From a virus, in the UHGV virus genome UHGV-0175259: a stretch of DNA of 13,845 nt; one strand, given 5' to 3'. Under the pieces are notes generated by a model. The model had not been told where the DNA came from. It ran no database searches and worked only from the letters and a program-made list of their open reading frames with translations. The position numbers were made by a program, and so were the translations under genes. Below are positions 1 to 7,397 of the stretch, piece after piece. Position 1 is the first letter of the stretch, and every line of letters starts with the position of its first letter.

Positions 1-165
1 GTCATCCGCGGGCTTGCAGTAAAAGACTTCGGGTTCGCCGATGACATTGAATTCGTTATCAGTGCGAATGGCTGCGAACTGTGCAGGGCGATCTAACGCG
101 GGGTGCGTTCCAAAGGTTTCGTAATCGTGAAAGAGGAAGGTAGGTTGTTTATCTGTGTCTGTCAT
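1..165 (-). CDS. sbcB: Exodeoxyribonuclease I (SbcB), N-terminal 55 codons only; the gene continues past the left window edge
   Basis: Minus-strand translation from ATG at 165..163 gives MTDTDKQPTFLFHDYETFGTHPALDRPAQFAAIRTDNEFNVIGEPEVFYCKPADD, which matches my recollection of the conserved N-terminus of enterobacterial exonuclease I (FHDYETFG DEDDh motif). Partial: the 3' end is off-window. Confidence 0.85.
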   Translation of the reverse strand, partial: MTDTDKQPTFLFHDYETFGTHPALDRPAQFAAIRTDNEFNVIGEPEVFYCKPADD

Positions 166-293
166 TGTCTAGCATTGTCCACTGTAGTTAATTAACTGTC
201 TGTTATAACTCGAAAAACAACCATTTTTTCACCTGAGTATGTCTACGAACGTCAAATATAGTTGTTTACTGTGCGCTGTTGTCCATGTGATAT

Positions 294-338
294 TGTGTAC
301 CAGATGTGTACCAAACCATTATTTCTGAGCGTACCAAA
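294..338 (+). promoter_or_regulatory. Three direct repeats of (TGT)GTACCA(A) immediately upstream of the int start codon; candidate integrase-binding or promoter elements
   Basis: TGTGTACCA at 294..302 and 305..313, GTACCAAA at 331..338; the int ATG is at 347. Confidence 0.3.
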
Positions 339-346
339 TATTATTT

Positions 347-1525
347 ATGGCTATAAGCGACACAAAACTGCGTAGTATTTATGGTAAACCATATTCGGGC
401 CCACAAGAAGTGGCTGATGCCGATGGCCTCAGCGTACGAATTTCACCGAAGGGGGTCATCCAGTTCCAGTACCGCTATCGCTGGCATGGCAAGCCTAATC
501 GACTTGGGCTTGGTCGATACCCATCCCTGTCTTTGAAGGATGCCAGACAGATCACTGCTGACTTGCGAAAGCTCTATTTCTCAGGAACGGATCCACGCAC
601 TTATTTTGAAGAGAAGGTGGAGAACTCCATGACGGTCGCCCAGTGTCTCGACTACTGGTTCGACAACTACGTCTCTACAACTCTCAGAGAAAAGACCCAG
701 GCACTTTACCGATCAACGGTTATGAAGCGCATGCATGACGCCTTTCCTAATCGTCCGGCATCTTCTATCACGGTTAAGCAATGGGTTGACCTGCTTACCG
801 AAGAAGAAAGAGATAATCCACGCCGAGCAAGGCAGGTGCTAAGTCAACTAAGATCAGCAATAAGTTGGTGCATGCGGCGTCAGTTGATAGATAGTTGCGC
901 AATTATGAGCATCCAACCAAGGGACTTCGGCTCCCGCGCTGAGGTAGGGGATCGGGTACTGTCGTATCACGAACTGGCTAAGATTTGGCTTGCTATTGAA
1001 AGAAGCCGTGCGTCTACGTCAAATAAGCTACTTCATCAGATGCTTATGCTGTGGGGGGCGAGGCTCTCAGAGCTTAGGCTGGCAAAAAAGACAGAATTTG
1101 ACCTGCTGGAAAACGTATGGACCGTACCGAAAGAGCATAGCAAGATGGGTAATGTTATCCGCCGTCCAATCTTCGAACAAATTAAGCCTTTCCTCGAAAA
1201 GGCCATGACAACGTACAATGATGTTCTTTTCCCTGGAGAAGACATAAACAAACCGATCAGCATCGCTGCAGCCAACCGATTCGTAAATAGAATAAGGGGA
1301 GGGATGGATCTAGGTTACTGGCGAACACACGATTTCAGAAGAACGCTTGTTACACGTCTGTCCGAGATGAATGTCGAGCCTCATGTTACTGAGCGAATGC
1401 TCGGTCATGAACTTGGCGGGATAATGTCCGTGTACAATAAACACGACTGGATAGAGGCTCAGCGCAAAGCGTATGAGCTTCACGCTGATAAATTGTTCTG
1501 GCACATCAGGAGCATTTCTGATTAA
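347..1525 (+). CDS. int: Site-specific tyrosine recombinase/integrase, P4-like family
   Basis: 392-aa ORF; N-terminal arm-binding-type region (GLSVRISPKGVIQFQYRYRWHGK) and C-terminal catalytic region (HDFRRT...LGH...SVYNKHDW) typical of phage tyrosine integrases; first gene inside the element next to host sbcB. Confidence 0.9.
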   Translation: MAISDTKLRSIYGKPYSGPQEVADADGLSVRISPKGVIQFQYRYRWHGKPNRLGLGRYPSLSLKDARQITADLRKLYFSGTDPRTYFEEKVENSMTVAQCLDYWFDNYVSTTLREKTQALYRSTVMKRMHDAFPNRPASSITVKQWVDLLTEEERDNPRRARQVLSQLRSAISWCMRRQLIDSCAIMSIQPRDFGSRAEVGDRVLSYHELAKIWLAIERSRASTSNKLLHQMLMLWGARLSELRLAKKTEFDLLENVWTVPKEHSKMGNVIRRPIFEQIKPFLEKAMTTYNDVLFPGEDINKPISIAAANRFVNRIRGGMDLGYWRTHDFRRTLVTRLSEMNVEPHVTERMLGHELGGIMSVYNKHDWIEAQRKAYELHADKLFWHIRSISD

Positions 1526-1697
1526 CGCCACCGTTAAGAATCCACCCTTCAACAGCTTCACGAAGGTATGATTTGGGGTGGGTTCTGACTGGCTTCGGAA
1601 ATCCGTGCCGTTTGGTATAGTTCCAGATTGTCTGACGTGATGAAACACCGAGCTTGTTCATCACTTCTTTCTCAGGAATCAGGCTGGTATCGGTCAT
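1506..1697 (-). CDS. AlpA-family helix-turn-helix protein (excisionase / prophage regulatory protein)
   Basis: 63 aa; EVMNKLGVSSRQTIWNYTKRHGFPKP resembles the AlpA/Xis HTH; SD GGAG 7 nt upstream of ATG at 1697..1695. Its 3' end overlaps the convergent int by 20 bp. Confidence 0.7.
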   Translation of the reverse strand: MTDTSLIPEKEVMNKLGVSSRQTIWNYTKRHGFPKPVRTHPKSYLREAVEGWILNGGVNQKCS

Positions 1698-1712
1698 CTT
1701 AATTCTCCAGGC

Positions 1713-1735
1713 AAAAAGAAACCGCCATCAGGCGG
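1713..1735 (-). terminator. Rho-independent terminator candidate (leftward transcripts)
   Basis: Hairpin CCGCC(1722..1726)-ATCA-GGCGG(1731..1735), followed on the minus strand by TTTCTTTTT. It overlaps the stop codon of the small ORF 1728..1895. Confidence 0.5.
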
Positions 1736-1895
1736 CTTGGTGTTCTTTCAGTTCTTCAATTCGAATATTGGTTACGTCTGCATGTGCTATCTGCGCCCAC
1801 AGCATCCAGTGGTCATAGCAGTCGCTGATGTTCTCGGCTTCGATAACTCTGTTGAATGGTTCTCCATTCCATTCACCTGTGACTCGGAAGTGCAT
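1728..1895 (-). CDS. Hypothetical small protein (55 aa), not in the supplied ORF track
   Basis: Hand translation: MHFRVTGEWNGEPFNRVIEAENISDCYDHWMLWAQIAHADVTNIRIEELKEHQAA; ATG 1895..1893 immediately preceded by an in-frame stop; bracketed by two minus-strand terminators; weak RBS. Confidence 0.3.
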   Translation of the reverse strand: MHFRVTGEWNGEPFNRVIEAENISDCYDHWMLWAQIAHADVTNIRIEELKEHQAA

Positions 1896-1907
1896 TTATC
1901 ATCTCAA

Positions 1908-1931
1908 TAAAAAAAACTCGCCGTAGCGAGT
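1908..1931 (-). terminator. Rho-independent terminator (leftward)
   Basis: Perfect hairpin ACTCGC(1916..1921)-CGTA-GCGAGT(1926..1931), followed on the minus strand by a run of 8 T (plus-strand A-run 1909..1916). Confidence 0.6.
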
Positions 1932-2085
1932 TCAGATAAAAGAAATCCCCGCGAGTGCGAGGATAGTTATTCATTGTCGATATTTACATTTATTTCGAAT
2001 ATATTTACTGGGTAATCGCCAAAGTCATATGTTTTTTATTCTGTTTTATAAGCACTACTAAGTACTGCTTATTACAAATAAGAAA

Positions 2086-2120
2086 AGGCTGAAAAAATAT
2101 TTAAGGCCACAACTGTGGCC
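2086..2120 (-). terminator. Rho-independent terminator candidate just downstream of the secreted DUF1311 gene
   Basis: Hairpin GGCCAC(2105..2110)-AACT-GTGGCC(2115..2120), followed on the minus strand by TTAAATATTTTTTC. Confidence 0.5.
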
Positions 2121-2130
2121 CTAAATTTAC

Positions 2131-2829
2131 TTACGGCACTGCGTTAATCAGATTACAAATACCTCTTTTGGCAGGGTCTGAATTCAACTTCTGGAAATTG
2201 GCGTTCAACATAGCAGTGTGTAAGTGATTCTCAACCTCAAAGAATAGGTCGATTTTGCCCTCTTTGGCTGCATGTTTCTTCCAAACATTCACTTGGTCAT
2301 CAGCAATACGACTGGCGCAAGTGAACAAGAACGAACTGCCTCTAGGAATGGACGTCGTGCTGTAATACTCACCATCTACTTCTACATATTTAGCTCGGAA
2401 TGACTCTAAGGTTAGCTTATTGCCGTTCTTGACCGACTTAACTTCTGCCTTACTTGTTTCTTCCTGCTCTTCAGAATGTTTCTGCGTCGACGTGGGTATC
2501 TCATTGGCCGCTGTTACGCTGACTGAACTCCCCAAACCTTTGAGGCCATTAATTTGGATAAGATAAGCCAGCTCCAGAGCCTTATTATCAGTGAGTTTTC
2601 CACGCATATTTACCCACTGACGTTGAACCATTTTTAGGGTGTCTGCGTTCTCTGGGTTTTCTTTGAGGGCACTAGAATAGGCAGAGCTAAGCTGTTCGTC
2701 TAATTTTGACAGACGTTCGTTATCGCAGATTTTATGTTCGATTGCTGTCGAAGCCTTTTGGCAGTCAAAGCTGGCTGCAAATGCACCCGGTGATGCCACT
2801 AACAATGATGCCAGTAGGATATTTTTCAT
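2131..2829 (-). CDS. Secreted protein with N-terminal DUF1311 (LprI lysozyme-inhibitor-like) domain and an uncharacterised C-terminal domain
   Basis: Start moved to the internal ATG 2829..2827 (MKNILLASLLVASPGAFAASF = signal peptide) with SD GGAG 7 nt upstream. Residues ~20-100 show the C..E..IC...L...Y...QRQW...R pattern I associate with DUF1311; Ser/Thr/Glu-rich linker; ~100-aa C-terminal domain of unknown function. Confidence 0.75.
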   Translation of the reverse strand: MKNILLASLLVASPGAFAASFDCQKASTAIEHKICDNERLSKLDEQLSSAYSSALKENPENADTLKMVQRQWVNMRGKLTDNKALELAYLIQINGLKGLGSSVSVTAANEIPTSTQKHSEEQEETSKAEVKSVKNGNKLTLESFRAKYVEVDGEYYSTTSIPRGSSFLFTCASRIADDQVNVWKKHAAKEGKIDLFFEVENHLHTAMLNANFQKLNSDPAKRGICNLINAVP

Positions 2830-2857
2830 ATTCACTCCATAAATACAAAAGCGCATT

Positions 2858-2867
2858 ACTATAGCAC
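2858..2867 (-). promoter_or_regulatory. Candidate extended -10 promoter (TGCTATAGT) for the secreted DUF1311 gene
   Basis: Minus strand reads TGCTATAGT about 25-30 nt upstream of the ATG; no convincing -35. Sequence-only guess. Confidence 0.25.
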
Positions 2868-2959
2868 TTAACCGATCGCTTATCTCGCCCGTTCGTCATT
2901 CTTATCTAACCAGAACATGCGGCTGCCACAGCACATGTCGAGGATCGCTGCATGTCCAG

Positions 2960-3127
2960 TCACCGGTTGCCTCCTTTGCGCAACATCGCATTCAGATATT
3001 TGTTGTCATTAACAGAACCGAAACTCTTTCTCTTAAGCAATTCCTCTCTCGATGGCATTGGCTTTACGCGTTGGCGAATAATCATTTCTGCCGGAAGAAT
3101 GCCGGGATTGTATGCAAGTCCTCTCAT
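2960..3127 (-). CDS. Hypothetical small protein (55 aa) in the early-left operon remnant
   Basis: Track ORF 2960..3280 trimmed to the ATG at 3127..3125, the only start with a good SD (GAGGAA, 6-nt spacer), which lies downstream of the stop of ORF 3138..3434. Product [55 protein letters not shown]. Confidence 0.45.
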
Positions 3128-3137
3128 TGTAAATTCC

Positions 3138-3434
3138 TCAGTCATTACTGATAGCGCCATAGCGTGAGCGGTAATTACGCAGGCGCGGGTCGATATATTC
3201 AGGGAAGTGGGTATATGTGGCTTTGCGGAATGGTCGGATTGATGTCTGGTAAATTCGCTCGCGTTCTTCTTTCTCTGCAAGCCATATACAATGGCGAAAT
3301 TCCTTTTCCTCTTTCGTTTCCTGCGGTAGCGACATTATCCGATCGTAGTTTTTTCTGAATTTATCCAGCACCTCCGATACGGAATTGCCGGAACAGCGGC
3401 GCGGGTCATCCGCACCATACAGAGGCGCTGGCAT
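3138..3434 (-). CDS. Hypothetical protein (98 aa), early-left operon
   Basis: ATG 3434..3432 with SD AGGAG 7 nt upstream, placed just after the exonuclease stop (operon-like packing). No family recognised. Confidence 0.6.
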
Positions 3435-3450
3435 GGTTTTCTCCTGTTGA

Positions 3451-3999
3451 TTATTTAGCTAACTTTTTCCAGATCGCTGAAACGTATTTGGCTTGGTGAA
3501 TGGCATCATCAAGAGCGTTGTGGCGAGTTCCTTTGAATGGCATATCTCGCTTAGGGTCGAATCCTATTACCTTTCCAAGCTCGACGATTGTTCTTACGTC
3601 GCGGTCATTCCACCACTGCCATGGAACTGGCTGCCCTGTCAGCGAATAACTGTTTCGGAGAATAACGCAGTCAAATGATGCTCCATTCCCCCAAACCTGA
3701 ACGAATTTGTGGTTAGCGTTCTTTATGATGAATTCAGATAACCATGAAAGAGCCGTTGAAAGCTCCTGAGTGTTGCTGGTTAGCGATTTTCTGGCTTCTT
3801 CACTCTGTTCCAGCCACCATAAAATCGTTGAAGCGTCAGGACGCGCCCGATATCGCATTGATGACTCAAGCGAGATATTTACCGAGAACTCTTCTCCTGT
3901 TTCTCCGGTATTCGGGTCAAAGAATACCGCCCCAATAGAAATAACTGGCGCGTATGGCCCGTTGCCCATTGTTTCAAGGTCAACCATCAAGTGATTCAT
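3451..3999 (-). CDS. DEDDh-type 3'-5' exonuclease (DnaQ/RNase T-like fold), phage recombination-region protein
   Basis: 182 aa; MVDLETMG (Asp-x-Glu motif I) and HNALDDA (His/Asp motif III); SD AAGGA 6 nt upstream of ATG 3999..3997; immediately downstream of ssb. Confidence 0.75.
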   Translation of the reverse strand: MNHLMVDLETMGNGPYAPVISIGAVFFDPNTGETGEEFSVNISLESSMRYRARPDASTILWWLEQSEEARKSLTSNTQELSTALSWLSEFIIKNANHKFVQVWGNGASFDCVILRNSYSLTGQPVPWQWWNDRDVRTIVELGKVIGFDPKRDMPFKGTRHNALDDAIHQAKYVSAIWKKLAK

Positions 4000-4007
4000 G
4001 TAAGTCC

Positions 4008-4390
4008 TTAAATTGCGTGAATAGCGTGACGAGGGAAGGGGAGAGTTACTGGTGCAAAGGGGATATCGTCGTCAAAATCCATAGGTGGTTCGCTGTGATT
4101 CCCTTGCTGCTGAGGTTGCTGTCTTTGTTGCTGACCGTCATTTCGCTGAGGTGAAGACTGTTCATTGCCTCCTTGCTTGCCACCAAGCATTTGCATGGTT
4201 CCACTAACGCCCACGATGACTTCGGTAGTGAACCGATCCTGTCCGCTTTGATCCTGCCATTTTCTTGTCCGCAATTTTCCTTCAAGATAAACCTCAGAGC
4301 CTTTTCGCAGATATTCGCTGGCAATTTCTGCCAGTTTTCCGCTCATTACCACGCGGTGCCACTCCGTCTGCTCCTTTTGCTCTCCAGTTT
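4008..4390 (-). pseudogene. ssb: Single-stranded DNA-binding protein gene, truncated: about 60 N-terminal codons missing and C-terminus extended 15 aa past the DDDIPF tip
   Basis: Translation ...[59 protein letters not shown]...[12 protein letters not shown] matches E. coli SSB from about residue 45 onward, but homology begins directly after an in-frame TAA and abuts the PL leader/nutL. The longest ORF (4008..4352) starts mid-OB-fold. After DIPF the frame continues [15 protein letters not shown]. Confidence 0.7.
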
Positions 4391-4445
4391 CAGGGCTTAA
4401 TTTTTAAGAGCCTCACCTTCATGGTGGTCAGTGCGTCCTGCTGAT
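4389..4445 (-). promoter_or_regulatory. PL transcript leader with nutL boxA (GGCTCTTA) and a truncated boxB (GCCCTGAA...)
   Basis: Minus strand ATCAGCAGGACGCACTGACCACCATGAAGGTGAGGCTCTTAAAAATTAAGCCCTGAA matches my recollection of the lambda PL leader/nutL almost base for base, then diverges inside boxB (expected GCCCTGAAGAAGGGC; here GCCCTGAAACTGGAG). Confidence 0.6.
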
Positions 4446-4456
4446 GGCTTAAAATT

Positions 4457-4524
4457 ACAAGAAAGATTGTATGTTGTAAACAAGAAATATTGTAAAAAGA
4501 GGCGTGAAAAACAAACTCCATTGT
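4457..4524. promoter_or_regulatory. OL operator cluster (three 434-type 14-bp operators) overlapping PL
   Basis: ACAAGAAAGATTGT 4457..4470; ACAAGAAATATTGT 4480..4493; ACAAACTCCATTGT 4511..4524. All fit the ACAA-N6-TTGT 434 operator pattern. Confidence 0.8.
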
Positions 4525-4573
4525 TTTTAAATGAAAAATAGTTTGTTTTTGGTTATCGAGATTGAGGTGGGGA

Positions 4574-5926
<1,353 letters not shown>

Positions 5927-5934
5927 GACATTCC

Positions 5935-5966
5935 CGCTCTTACACATCCCAGCCCTGAAAAAGGGC
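5935..5966 (+). promoter_or_regulatory. nutR antitermination site (boxA CGCTCTTA plus boxB hairpin GCCCTGAAAAAGGGC)
   Basis: CGCTCTTA 5935..5942; GCCCTGAAAAAGGGC 5952..5966. A lambda-type nutR between cro and cII. Confidence 0.8.
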
Positions 5967-6042
5967 ATTACCAGAAACAAATCTCTATGGTTTTGCGTTT
6001 CTTTGCGAAGCCAACTCTATCTAATCATTAAGGAAATTATCT

Positions 6043-6324
6043 ATGGGTACTATTGCAACTAAAAGCAAGAAAGCGGCTCGCATCGAGTCAGCCTTGCTGA
6101 ACAAACTGGCACTGATGGGGCAGAAGACATTCGCTCGAGCAATGGGGGTTCCTGAATATCAGGTAAGCCGATGGAAGAATGGTTTCTTCTCGCAGGTAAG
6201 CATGATGCTTGCTGTTCTGGAATACGGAATCGAAGACGATGAAATGGCTGAATTGACTAAGCGGCTTGCCGATTACCTGACAAAAGAAAAAGCCCCGAAG
6301 AACGGCGAATTCTTCGAGGCCTAA
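6043..6324 (+). CDS. cII: CII transcriptional activator
   Basis: 93 aa; [25 protein letters not shown]...SRWK...[15 protein letters not shown] closely parallels lambda CII; SD AAGGA upstream. Confidence 0.9.
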
Positions 6325-6358
6325 TGTAGAAAGACTGGATCAATCCACGGGAGTAATT

Positions 6359-6505
6359 ATGACAAAACAACTCAGTCCTTACCAGGACAAAATTCACAAA
6401 CACATACTACGTGATCGCTTCCTGTCCAGCTTCAAGCAGCCTGGTCGATTCCGGGCTGAGTTGGAAAAAGTGAAGCTGATGCAGAAGGAGAAAGGTCATG
6501 AGTAA
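6359..6505 (+). CDS. Hypothetical small protein (48 aa) between cII and the replication initiator, not in the ORF track
   Basis: ATG 6359 with SD GGGAG 6349..6353; [48 protein letters not shown]; its stop overlaps the start of the O-like gene (coupled arrangement). Confidence 0.4.
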
Positions 6506-7397
6506 CATATCTAATCTAGCCGAAGCCAGAGAGGCCAGAAGGCTACAACAACCGCATCAAAGCAGCGGTAAGGGGTATGCCTTGCTGCACCGTAAAATTA
6601 TGGATGTGCCGTTTTACAAGGACGCAGAAGCAGCGCATCTGTGGGTTCACTTAATCCTCAAAGCAAAGCATACGCCTGAGTATGTAATGACTGACGCAGG
6701 AGAAATTCTGGTAGGCAGAGGGAAGCTACTTGGCGGTAGAAACTCTCTGGCGTTTGAAACAGGACTCAAACCAGATCGCGTTCAGTACCTGCTTAGAAAG
6801 TTCAAAAAACTCGGCATGATTGACTGGGTTTCACACGGTAAATTCTCAGTTTTCTCGGTAGAGAAATATGACGATTATCAGTCAAATTTTGTACCAGCAG
6901 ATTACCAGCAAATTACCACCTCAAAGCCAGCAATACCAATGCCTGTAAGCAATACTGTACCAGCAGATTACCAGCAAATTACCACAGATAAAGAATATAA
7001 TAATATTATCTCTAATACTGACGTATTAGAGAGTGCCACAGTAGACAAAAAGTCTGACAAGAAAAAACCTTCCGTTAGCTGTCAGGATGTTGTCGATGCT
7101 TACCACGAAATCCTTCCTGAAGCGCCAAAAATCCGCGCACTGAATGACAAGCGTAAAAACCAGATCCGAACGTTCTGGCGCAAAGCCGGAGTGATAACCC
7201 GCCAGCTTGACGGGCATGGGTTCACGATGCAGGACTGGAGAAATTATTTGATCTACGTAGGCGAAAATTGCCGATGGATGTTCGAAGAACGCCCAAACCA
7301 TCAACGCGGAACCGTCTGGCACAAAAAGGGATTTGATTTCCTGCTTAACGACAATACCTACCTGAAAGTTCGTGAGGGTGAACACGATGACCGATAA
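6498..7397 (+). CDS. Replication initiation protein (lambda O / P22 gp18-like replisome organiser)
   Basis: 299 aa; position after cII and before a DnaB-like helicase with an 11-nt overlap; contains an internal iteron array plus AT-rich tract in its linker, as lambdoid O genes do. Confidence 0.75.
6891..7030. repeat. Candidate phage replication origin: iteron array plus AT-rich tract inside the O-like gene
   Basis: 29-bp direct repeat GTACCAGCAGATTACCAGCAAATTACCAC at 6891..6919 and 6957..6985, each holding two 11-bp ACCAGCA(G/A)ATT sub-repeats, with degenerate copies between; followed by AT-rich GATAAAGAATATAATAATATTATCTCTAATA. Confidence 0.6.

Follow-up and report, generated by a model that had tools for sequence, protein, structure and literature searches.

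What purpose does an intact gene for an exported protein serve in a defective prophage, and is the gene part of that prophage's own inheritance or a piece of cargo? The question is raised by the virus genome UHGV-0175259, a stretch of 13,845 nucleotides (nt) that was analysed whole and is called the window here. Its minus strand encodes a 232-residue protein of the DUF1311 (LprI-type) class, and an earlier model's reading of the letters alone (the sequence-only reading) had presented the gene as a stand-alone moron retained for the good of the bacterial host. Comparison with other carriers indicates that positions 2898 to 2090 (minus strand) are very probably a mobile, self-contained accessory unit of the moron type, encoding an exported protein of two domains. 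The unit is composed as follows.

2131..2829, minus strand: coding sequence of 232 amino acids (aa), stop codon included; the product is identical to RefSeq WP_001518156.1, ‘lysozyme inhibitor LprI family protein’
2835..2838, minus strand: Shine-Dalgarno sequence GGAG, 5 nt before the ATG, read from the sequence
2858..2866, minus strand: extended -10 promoter-like element TGCTATAGT (TATAGT at 2863..2858), recognised by motif conservation, with no good -35
2867..2898, minus strand: left junction, where about 10 degenerate codons show homology to the 3' terminus of SSU5_100, a phiTE_072-family gene, from sequence comparison
2090..2126, minus strand: intrinsic-terminator hairpin with a 12-bp stem (2126..2099) and a 4-nt loop, then a T-run (-17.6 kcal/mol, z = -5.7)

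The limits of the unit are drawn by its other carriers. Identity between the window and the phage-plasmid SSU5 (83%) is confined to 2898..2094, a segment that starts 69 nt before the ATG and stops where the hairpin ends, and 13 loci in SSU5-type phage-plasmids share just 2886/2898..2094, at 82-83% identity. A census of boundaries at 41 loci found all SSU5-like elements limited to this same segment; the lambdoid prophages in the census broke off upstream at 2980, or continued into the DUF2737 gene at 3127 and beyond, and broke off downstream at 1933, 1898 or 1708. The lambda-like phage ev099 is 98% identical in DNA over 2980..1708 and has the gene at the corresponding position, beside a 55-aa open reading frame (ORF), xis and int, with a different gene upstream. 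In strain AW1.7, whose sibling prophage occupies the same sbcB site, three other genes fill the slot, which is a variable cargo site beside xis and int at the distal end of the early-left operon. SSU5-like phage-plasmids have an SSU5_100-type gene of the phiTE_072 family before the DUF1311 gene, and the phiTE_072-like codons at the left junction therefore suggest that the cassette entered lambdoid phages with the tail of its former upstream neighbour.

The cassette, 0.8 kb long, was found in 124 of 5426 complete E. coli genomes (2.3%), as about 108 chromosomal copies at 95-100% identity and 17 plasmid copies at about 82%. The chromosomal prophages that were inspected adjoin sbcB, ybhC or mdtA. 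With several attachment sites in use, and with SSU5-like phage-plasmids among the carriers, the gene stands outside any host operon; its association with prophages, as first proposed, is upheld.

Morons are a concept of Hendrix and Juhala for lambdoid phages, exemplified by lambda bor and lom and by the morons of HK97. The window cassette resembles them in being a single gene with a promoter-like element and a terminator, lying in a variable slot and present or absent, with discrete boundaries, between otherwise homologous phages. It differs from them in that its composition is not distinct from that of the surrounding prophage (44.1% GC in the gene, 43.3% in the window) and in that expression from the prophage is predicted.

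The Shine-Dalgarno sequence (GGAG, 2838..2835) and the extended -10 motif (TGCTATAGT, 2866..2858) pointed out by the sequence-only reading are both present. Across four alleles, reaching down to 71% aa identity, GTGnTATAGT is invariant save at n; GGAG reads GGGG in one of the four, and the 5' untranslated region (UTR) is otherwise largely conserved. Conservation of the extended -10 and of the 5' UTR is the best available support, short of proof, for a promoter of the gene's own, whose activity is predicted on that ground. A two-hexamer consensus promoter scan, which lists no promoter at 2858..2866 because the -35 is poor, weighs on the other side. The idea of a stand-alone moron accordingly keeps its promoter-gene-terminator anatomy and its discrete, polymorphic unit, and is weakened where the extended -10 has no -35 and goes unlisted. 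A 241-aa ORF starting at 2856 was rejected as the start of the gene: it has no Shine-Dalgarno sequence, and its ATG sits at the -10 element. The string TGNTATAGT occurs four times in the window against 0.4 expected, a number reached in none of 200 shuffles; apart from the site ahead of the DUF1311 gene, the copies, all antisense, are at 1613..1621 (plus strand, in xis), 11460..11468 (minus strand, at the tailspike 3' end) and 12469..12477 (plus strand, in an acyltransferase gene).

At the other end of the gene, the hairpin noticed earlier at 2105..2120 proved to lie within the terminator stem, and the whole hairpin (2126..2090) is also kept in SSU5. Terminator-like sites are enriched in 1500..4600 (9 found, 3.1 ± 1.9 expected), and a further hairpin lies at 1738..1719. 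The description of the gene as sitting between terminators is accurate downstream, where the hairpins are strong; the sole upstream hairpin (2930..2918) is weak. Similarly, the range first given, 1906..2870, holds the gene and also takes in an AT-rich spacer of about 220 nt (33% GC) downstream of it. Rfam gave nothing above threshold in window 1650..3000, nor in loci L051 and L052.

The protein itself divides into four segments.

2776..2829, minus strand: Sec signal peptide (signal peptidase I type), aa 1-18, MKNILLASLLVASPGAFA and then ASFDC, with AxA at -3/-1 (AFA before ASFDC) and no lipobox, read from the sequence
2530..2775, minus strand: DUF1311/LprI-type helical module, aa 19-100, from Pfam PF07007 and AlphaFold
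2416..2529, minus strand: disordered linker rich in Ser, Thr, Glu and Lys, 38 aa, aa 101-138, with an AlphaFold predicted local distance difference test score (pLDDT) of about 30
2134..2415, minus strand: C-terminal domain (C-domain), 94 aa, aa 139-232, composed of one short helix, a beta-hairpin and three more helices; Cys171 and Cys225 are conserved; from a model of the domain

An exported two-domain protein with DUF1311, a Ser/Thr/Glu-rich linker and an unknown C-terminal domain had been anticipated, and each of these parts was borne out, export being predicted from the signal peptide. All 69 aligned relatives show ASFDC after the cleavage site. The PF07007 match (aa 23-78, E = 1.6e-5) scores 25.7 bits against a gathering cut-off of 22, and 68 of the 69 relatives match this profile too; it was the only Pfam family found in the window protein at E <= 1, MliC (PF09864) not being among the matches. 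Canonical DUF1311 has two Cys pairs: C-x11-C, close to the N-terminus, and RN.C.D..C, which precedes the last helix. The first of them is present and conserved as Cys23 and Cys35. AlphaFold, run on the 69-sequence alignment, models the N-domain as four helices (aa 21-100, pLDDT 75-93).

In the full-length model, made from a mixed alignment, the C-terminal half stayed below a pLDDT of 50, which rendered its fold search meaningless, and the C-domain was therefore remodelled alone. With an alignment of true relatives it reached a pLDDT of 91.7 and a predicted template modelling score (pTM) of 0.82. In BFVD the domain is matched only by homologues from Aeromonas T4-like phages, which are independent models (template modelling scores of 0.80-0.81). 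No PDB entry is related to it in sequence or fold, and PDB sequence searches returned nothing credible with the whole-protein profile, the N-domain alone, the N-domain profile or the C-domain profile. The possibility that the C-domain is a diverged second copy of DUF1311 was rejected (hhalign probability 0.2%). A phmmer search of 1.84 billion representative proteins gave 7 hits, all two-domain relatives or fragments save one spurious compositional or repeat match (P0125, a 943-aa repeat protein, E = 5e-5); a scan of 185,579 species, one genome each, gave two loci, and a protein search with the C-domain profile gave fragments only. The C-domain is therefore rare, almost confined to phages and without a solved structural relative, and what is new in this protein is the joining of a DUF1311 module to such an undescribed domain. 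Being confidently modelled, the 94-residue domain could be registered as a new family.

The two folded parts have been held to their sequences far more tightly than the segment between them. Relative to the SSU5 allele, the ratio of nonsynonymous to synonymous substitution rates (dN/dS) comes to 0.09 in the N-domain and 0.05 in the C-domain, against 0.91 in the linker; the whole coding sequence gives 0.14. The linker, at 45% aa identity, has preserved its length. On these ratios both folded domains are judged to be functional and under purifying selection, and the linker to be a drifting tether. The conserved pairs Cys23/Cys35 and Cys171/Cys225 would provide a disulfide in each domain. The synonymous rate itself (dS) rises along the gene, from 0.22 in the signal-peptide codons to 0.52 in the N-domain and 1.54 in the C-domain, and the 5' UTR is likewise far more SSU5-like (window 2773..2898); this gradient could reflect constraint at the 5' end or mosaic recombination within the cassette. 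More than 400 proteins, 300-440 aa long (P0075-P0120 among them), likewise have an ASFDC-type DUF1311 module directly behind the signal peptide; their C-terminal regions mostly have no Pfam match and in a few cases contain ankyrin repeats. The ASFDC-type DUF1311 looks like a widespread N-terminal module with variable C-terminal domains.

Relatives of the protein were sought in other phages with tblastn, which matched 149 phage records, 46 of them over at least 80% of the protein. Virulent T4-like phages of Aeromonas are among them, at 27-30% identity; in Klebsiella and RB49-like phages the similarity is mainly to the N-module. In Aes508 and in Klebsiella phage VAC36 the gene lies between those for primase gp61 and dCTPase gp56, and in Aes508 it is preceded by a terminator and a T4-early-type promoter (GTTTACA-18-TGaTACTAT). 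In Aswh_1 it lies on the opposite strand between baseplate genes, behind an early-type promoter (TGcTATGAT). This Aswh_1 homologue (3978..4627 of locus L005) truly begins at 3978; the deposited start, 4025, leaves out the signal peptide MKKIVSVCLLSLSLFTMTPAIG before ASFDC. The phiAS4 annotation gives the C-domain an 86-aa ORF of its own (P0128), a sign that the gene there is split or wrongly called. P0123, a relative at 39% identity, is placed in antisense orientation between a PF00959 (GH24) endolysin gene (E = 8e-24) and an Rz-like spanin gene (locus L051), and another is on a 4.4-kb contig bearing a resolvase gene. A chromosomal relative in E. coli, P0072, has hicAB and ydcP as neighbours in an island marked by insertion sequences, which is not a type VI secretion system (T6SS) locus, and its context is uninformative. 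Every context inspected is a mobile element, and the carriers include gut and avian E. coli, Salmonella and Enterobacter.

This distribution bears on who profits from the gene. The sequence-only reading had argued that retention in a degraded prophage suggests selection for a benefit to the host. That argument does not stand, since the remnant keeps many other early genes and the family also occurs in intact lambdoid phages and phage-plasmids; moreover, virulent T4-like phages have no lysogen to benefit, so retention is no evidence for host benefit. The 46 full-length phage records, virulent Aeromonas phages included, and the early-type promoters suggest instead that the benefit would go to the phage and that expression would be early.

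Single-domain DUF1311 proteins offer the nearest guide to function, as immunity proteins, shown or predicted, against T6SS effectors that act in the periplasm and whose cell-wall target is likewise either shown or predicted. The EHEC protein Etsi4 rescues the toxicity of Etse4 (PMC12981562), and immunity of this kind is predicted for Salmonella Dublin SED_RS06230 (PMC8867033), in Pantoea (PMC9796082) and next to WHIX effectors (PMC12135965). In periplasmic PF07007 proteins, a class that includes Etsi4 and SED_RS06230, as in the window protein, the signal peptide is followed directly by a helical module of the form ASFDC...E..IC...L..LD..L...Y...Q..W...R. The window protein differs from these immunity proteins in adding a linker and a C-domain, in lacking the second Cys pair, and in being borne by a phage, outside any T6SS island and with no adjacent effector.

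A second guide comes from phage biology. T4 Spackle (Sp) is a periplasmic inhibitor of the gp5 tail lysozyme and acts in superinfection exclusion. It is a small periplasmic protein encoded by a phage and made early in infection, as is predicted for the window protein, and the same mode of action is proposed for the latter. The Spackle gene of VAC36 belongs to the early region (gene 41 to 56), which houses the DUF1311 gene in Aes508 and VAC36. The two proteins are unrelated in sequence: Spackle belongs to phrog_1586, which the VAC36 copy matches, and the window protein to phrog_4675. Inhibition of a tail lysozyme is proposed by analogy. A tblastn search found no Spackle homologues in the Aeromonas T4-like phages that carry the family, an absence that fits this proposal weakly.

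With DUF1311 knowledge, a predicted periplasmic location, carriers both virulent and temperate, and predicted early expression as its grounds, the reading tentatively preferred, with somewhat less than even confidence, is that the two-domain protein is a stoichiometric periplasmic antagonist of an incoming peptidoglycan hydrolase. The exported protein would remain soluble in the periplasm, each domain stabilised by its disulfide, and would act by binding, in a fixed ratio, a peptidoglycan-cleaving enzyme arriving from outside. The target may be a muramidase or transglycosylase that a superinfecting phage carries in its virion, or else a muramidase delivered as a T6SS effector; the protein would then be an orphan ‘immunity’ protein, analogous to T4 Spackle. 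The conserved C-domain would probably confer target specificity, and the DUF1311 module would be a generic binding scaffold. In a lysogen the gene would be expressed from its own promoter while the leftward promoter PL is repressed; in lytic growth it would be an early gene, read through from PL in lambdoid phages or driven by early promoters in T4-like ones. The signal peptide that a T6SS immunity protein needs in order to act in the periplasm is there (AFA before ASFDC; a predicted location), and the position of P0123 beside GH24 endolysin and Rz spanin genes was counted as a link to peptidoglycan hydrolases.

Several observations weigh against the antagonist. The PF07007 match is partial (profile positions 1-70 of 106), and the second canonical Cys pair is missing, the phage subfamily having MRGKLTDNKAL in its place. 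The closest family in PHROG is 4675 (E = 1e-94), annotated as of unknown function; the only other PHROG matches are phrog_14799, 33858 and 4895, and any function of the two-domain family of PHROG 4675 can be proposed only by analogy. PADLOC gave no hit for the window protein. None of the lambdoid, SSU5 or T4-like contexts has a cognate effector or hydrolase gene next to the DUF1311 gene, and no effector-like neighbour was found in the L051 or L055 contexts; the bicistronic arrangement of T6SS pairs is absent there, and ‘orphan’ is the most that can be said. The endolysin-adjacent setting of P0123 is seen on one 1.5-kb contig only. VAC36 carries Spackle and a DUF1311 protein together, so the two are not simple substitutes. 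Finally, ScwA, the one characterised periplasmic DUF1311 protein of enterobacteria, acts on how much of the host's hydrolases is present and not by blocking an enzyme that comes in (PMC7933661).

ScwA (Salmonella SL1344_0490) is the model for one rival explanation, in which the window protein would change the level or stability of host periplasmic hydrolases (MltD, Slt, AmiC or others) and so remodel the wall for the phage or lysogen. ScwA is horizontally acquired, of low GC content, periplasmic and stabilised by two disulfides; it positively controls MltD levels, affects those of other hydrolases and causes lysis when overproduced (PMC7933661), and the window protein shares with it an export signal and conserved Cys pairs. 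The architectures differ, however: ScwA is a 275-aa protein with its DUF1311 domain at the C-terminal end (aa 185-271), has no counterpart of the window C-domain and is encoded by a chromosomal gene that is not phage-borne. A modulator of this kind seems improbable. The same protein bears on the literal meaning of the family name, an inhibitor of animal c-type lysozyme that would aid the bacterial host in colonisation. The Pfam and RefSeq name derives from M. tuberculosis LprI (Rv1541c), which is reported to be a lysozyme inhibitor (cited in PMC7933661), and the finding of the family in gut and avian E. coli, Salmonella and Enterobacter counts in favour of this reading. LprI is, like the window protein, an exported two-domain DUF1311 protein, but it is a lipoprotein with MliC (PF09864) as its second domain, according to PMC7933661, whereas the window protein has no lipobox and an unrelated second domain. 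A scwA mutant has no lysozyme phenotype (PMC7933661), the family occurs in virulent phages of aquatic Aeromonas, and lysozyme would first have to cross the outer membrane of a Gram-negative cell. This explanation is very unlikely indeed. Classical lysozyme inhibition is unlikely because the MliC domain is absent, and the suggestion of it that the sequence-only reading drew from LprI is weak; for the same reason the automatic name ‘lysozyme inhibitor LprI family protein’ claims more than has been established.

A brake on the phage's own lysis, in which the protein would restrain the endolysin (for example a signal-arrest-release or GH24 lysozyme) or the spanins and so tune the timing of lysis, is suggested by the place of P0123 between endolysin and spanin genes and by the link of the DUF1311 family to muramidase antagonism. 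That gene is antisense to the lysis genes, as is typical of an inserted moron, and in all other contexts the gene is far from lysis genes. In T4-like phages it lies behind early promoters, and the window prophage has lost its lysis cassette and still keeps the gene intact. A lysis brake is decidedly improbable. An exclusion or envelope function unrelated to peptidoglycan hydrolases, such as masking of an outer-membrane receptor or a block to DNA entry, would make DUF1311 a mere scaffold and leave the work to the C-domain. It would accord with the joining of the same N-module to many unrelated C-terminal regions, with a C-domain that is the more constrained and almost phage-confined part, and with the early expression typical of exclusion genes. 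Against this, the protein resembles no known exclusion protein and gives no PADLOC hit, and the same target would have to exist in both Aeromonas and Escherichia, which are very different hosts; a role of this kind is also held improbable.

A broader proposal, doubtful for the present, is that PHROG 4675 and its relatives in Aeromonas T4-like phages form an unrecognised family of periplasmic anti-muramidase shields of phages, either analogues of Spackle or phage-borne orphan T6SS immunity proteins, travelling as a plug-in cassette exchanged by temperate phages, phage-plasmids and virulent phages, with the C-domain setting the target. If the antagonist of incoming hydrolases is the correct reading, the gene would be a portable means of envelope protection common to phages whose lifestyles differ widely. 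It would then matter for superinfection exclusion, for choosing the phages of therapy cocktails and for the question whether prophages arm their hosts against the T6SS.

The immediate surroundings of the cassette hold three further features.

2880..2963, minus strand: N-terminal remnant (27 codons) of an S-adenosylmethionine-dependent methyltransferase gene, displaced by the cassette and annotated as a methyltransferase in another strain
1914..1964, minus strand: two tandem terminator-like hairpins (1964..1945 and 1933..1914) in the AT-rich spacer, z = -6.5
1728..1895, minus strand: 55-aa ORF of phrog_676, of unknown function, which accompanies the cassette in lambdoid prophages and is absent from SSU5

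The GTG of the methyltransferase remnant overlaps the stop codon of the DUF2737 gene. An identification of SSU5_100 itself as a methyltransferase was rejected; it is a phiTE_072-family protein, and the window holds two separate remnants. The tandem hairpins at 1914..1964 mark a second insertion hot-spot, with junctions at 1948/1933 in the boundary census. Several prophages (L008 among them) have a 266-aa hypothetical gene between duplicated copies of 1948..1933, which looks like another terminator-flanked cargo beside the DUF1311 cassette.

As to the prophage as a whole, window positions 1..6570 and 8516..13845 are at least 99.9% identical to the sbcB–dacD interval of the E. coli MRE162 chromosome. 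The window is a defective P22-like prophage adjoining sbcB in E. coli and closest to strain MRE162. In the MRE162 annotation the remnant comprises int, xis and early-left accessory or recombination genes (DUF2737, anti-RecBCD, a 3'-5' exonuclease and a partial ssb), a LexA-family repressor, cro-like, cII and replication genes, and directly after these the antirepressor, tailspike and acyltransferase genes. As the lysis, head and tail genes are missing, the earlier description of a degraded prophage is correct.

Positions 6571..7358 and 7723..8515 find no match in the MRE162 record, and the window therefore comes from a related, non-identical strain. Here the window has an intact replication ORF of 299 aa (6498..7397) and a DnaB-like helicase ORF of 402 aa (7372..8580), which is cut near 8516 and fused directly to the region upstream of the antirepressor gene; the MRE162 counterpart is more rearranged, with a partial helicase and P63C fragments. 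At the left end of the window, the integrase gene (347..1525, plus strand) and an xis-like helix-turn-helix gene (1506..1697, minus strand) converge and overlap by 20 nt, unlike the co-directional int and xis of ev099 and other cassette-bearing prophages. At the right end, the tailspike gene is followed by a convergent acyltransferase-family gene of 636-640 aa (11677..13599, minus strand), plausibly a lysogenic-conversion gene for O-antigen modification that the remnant has kept.

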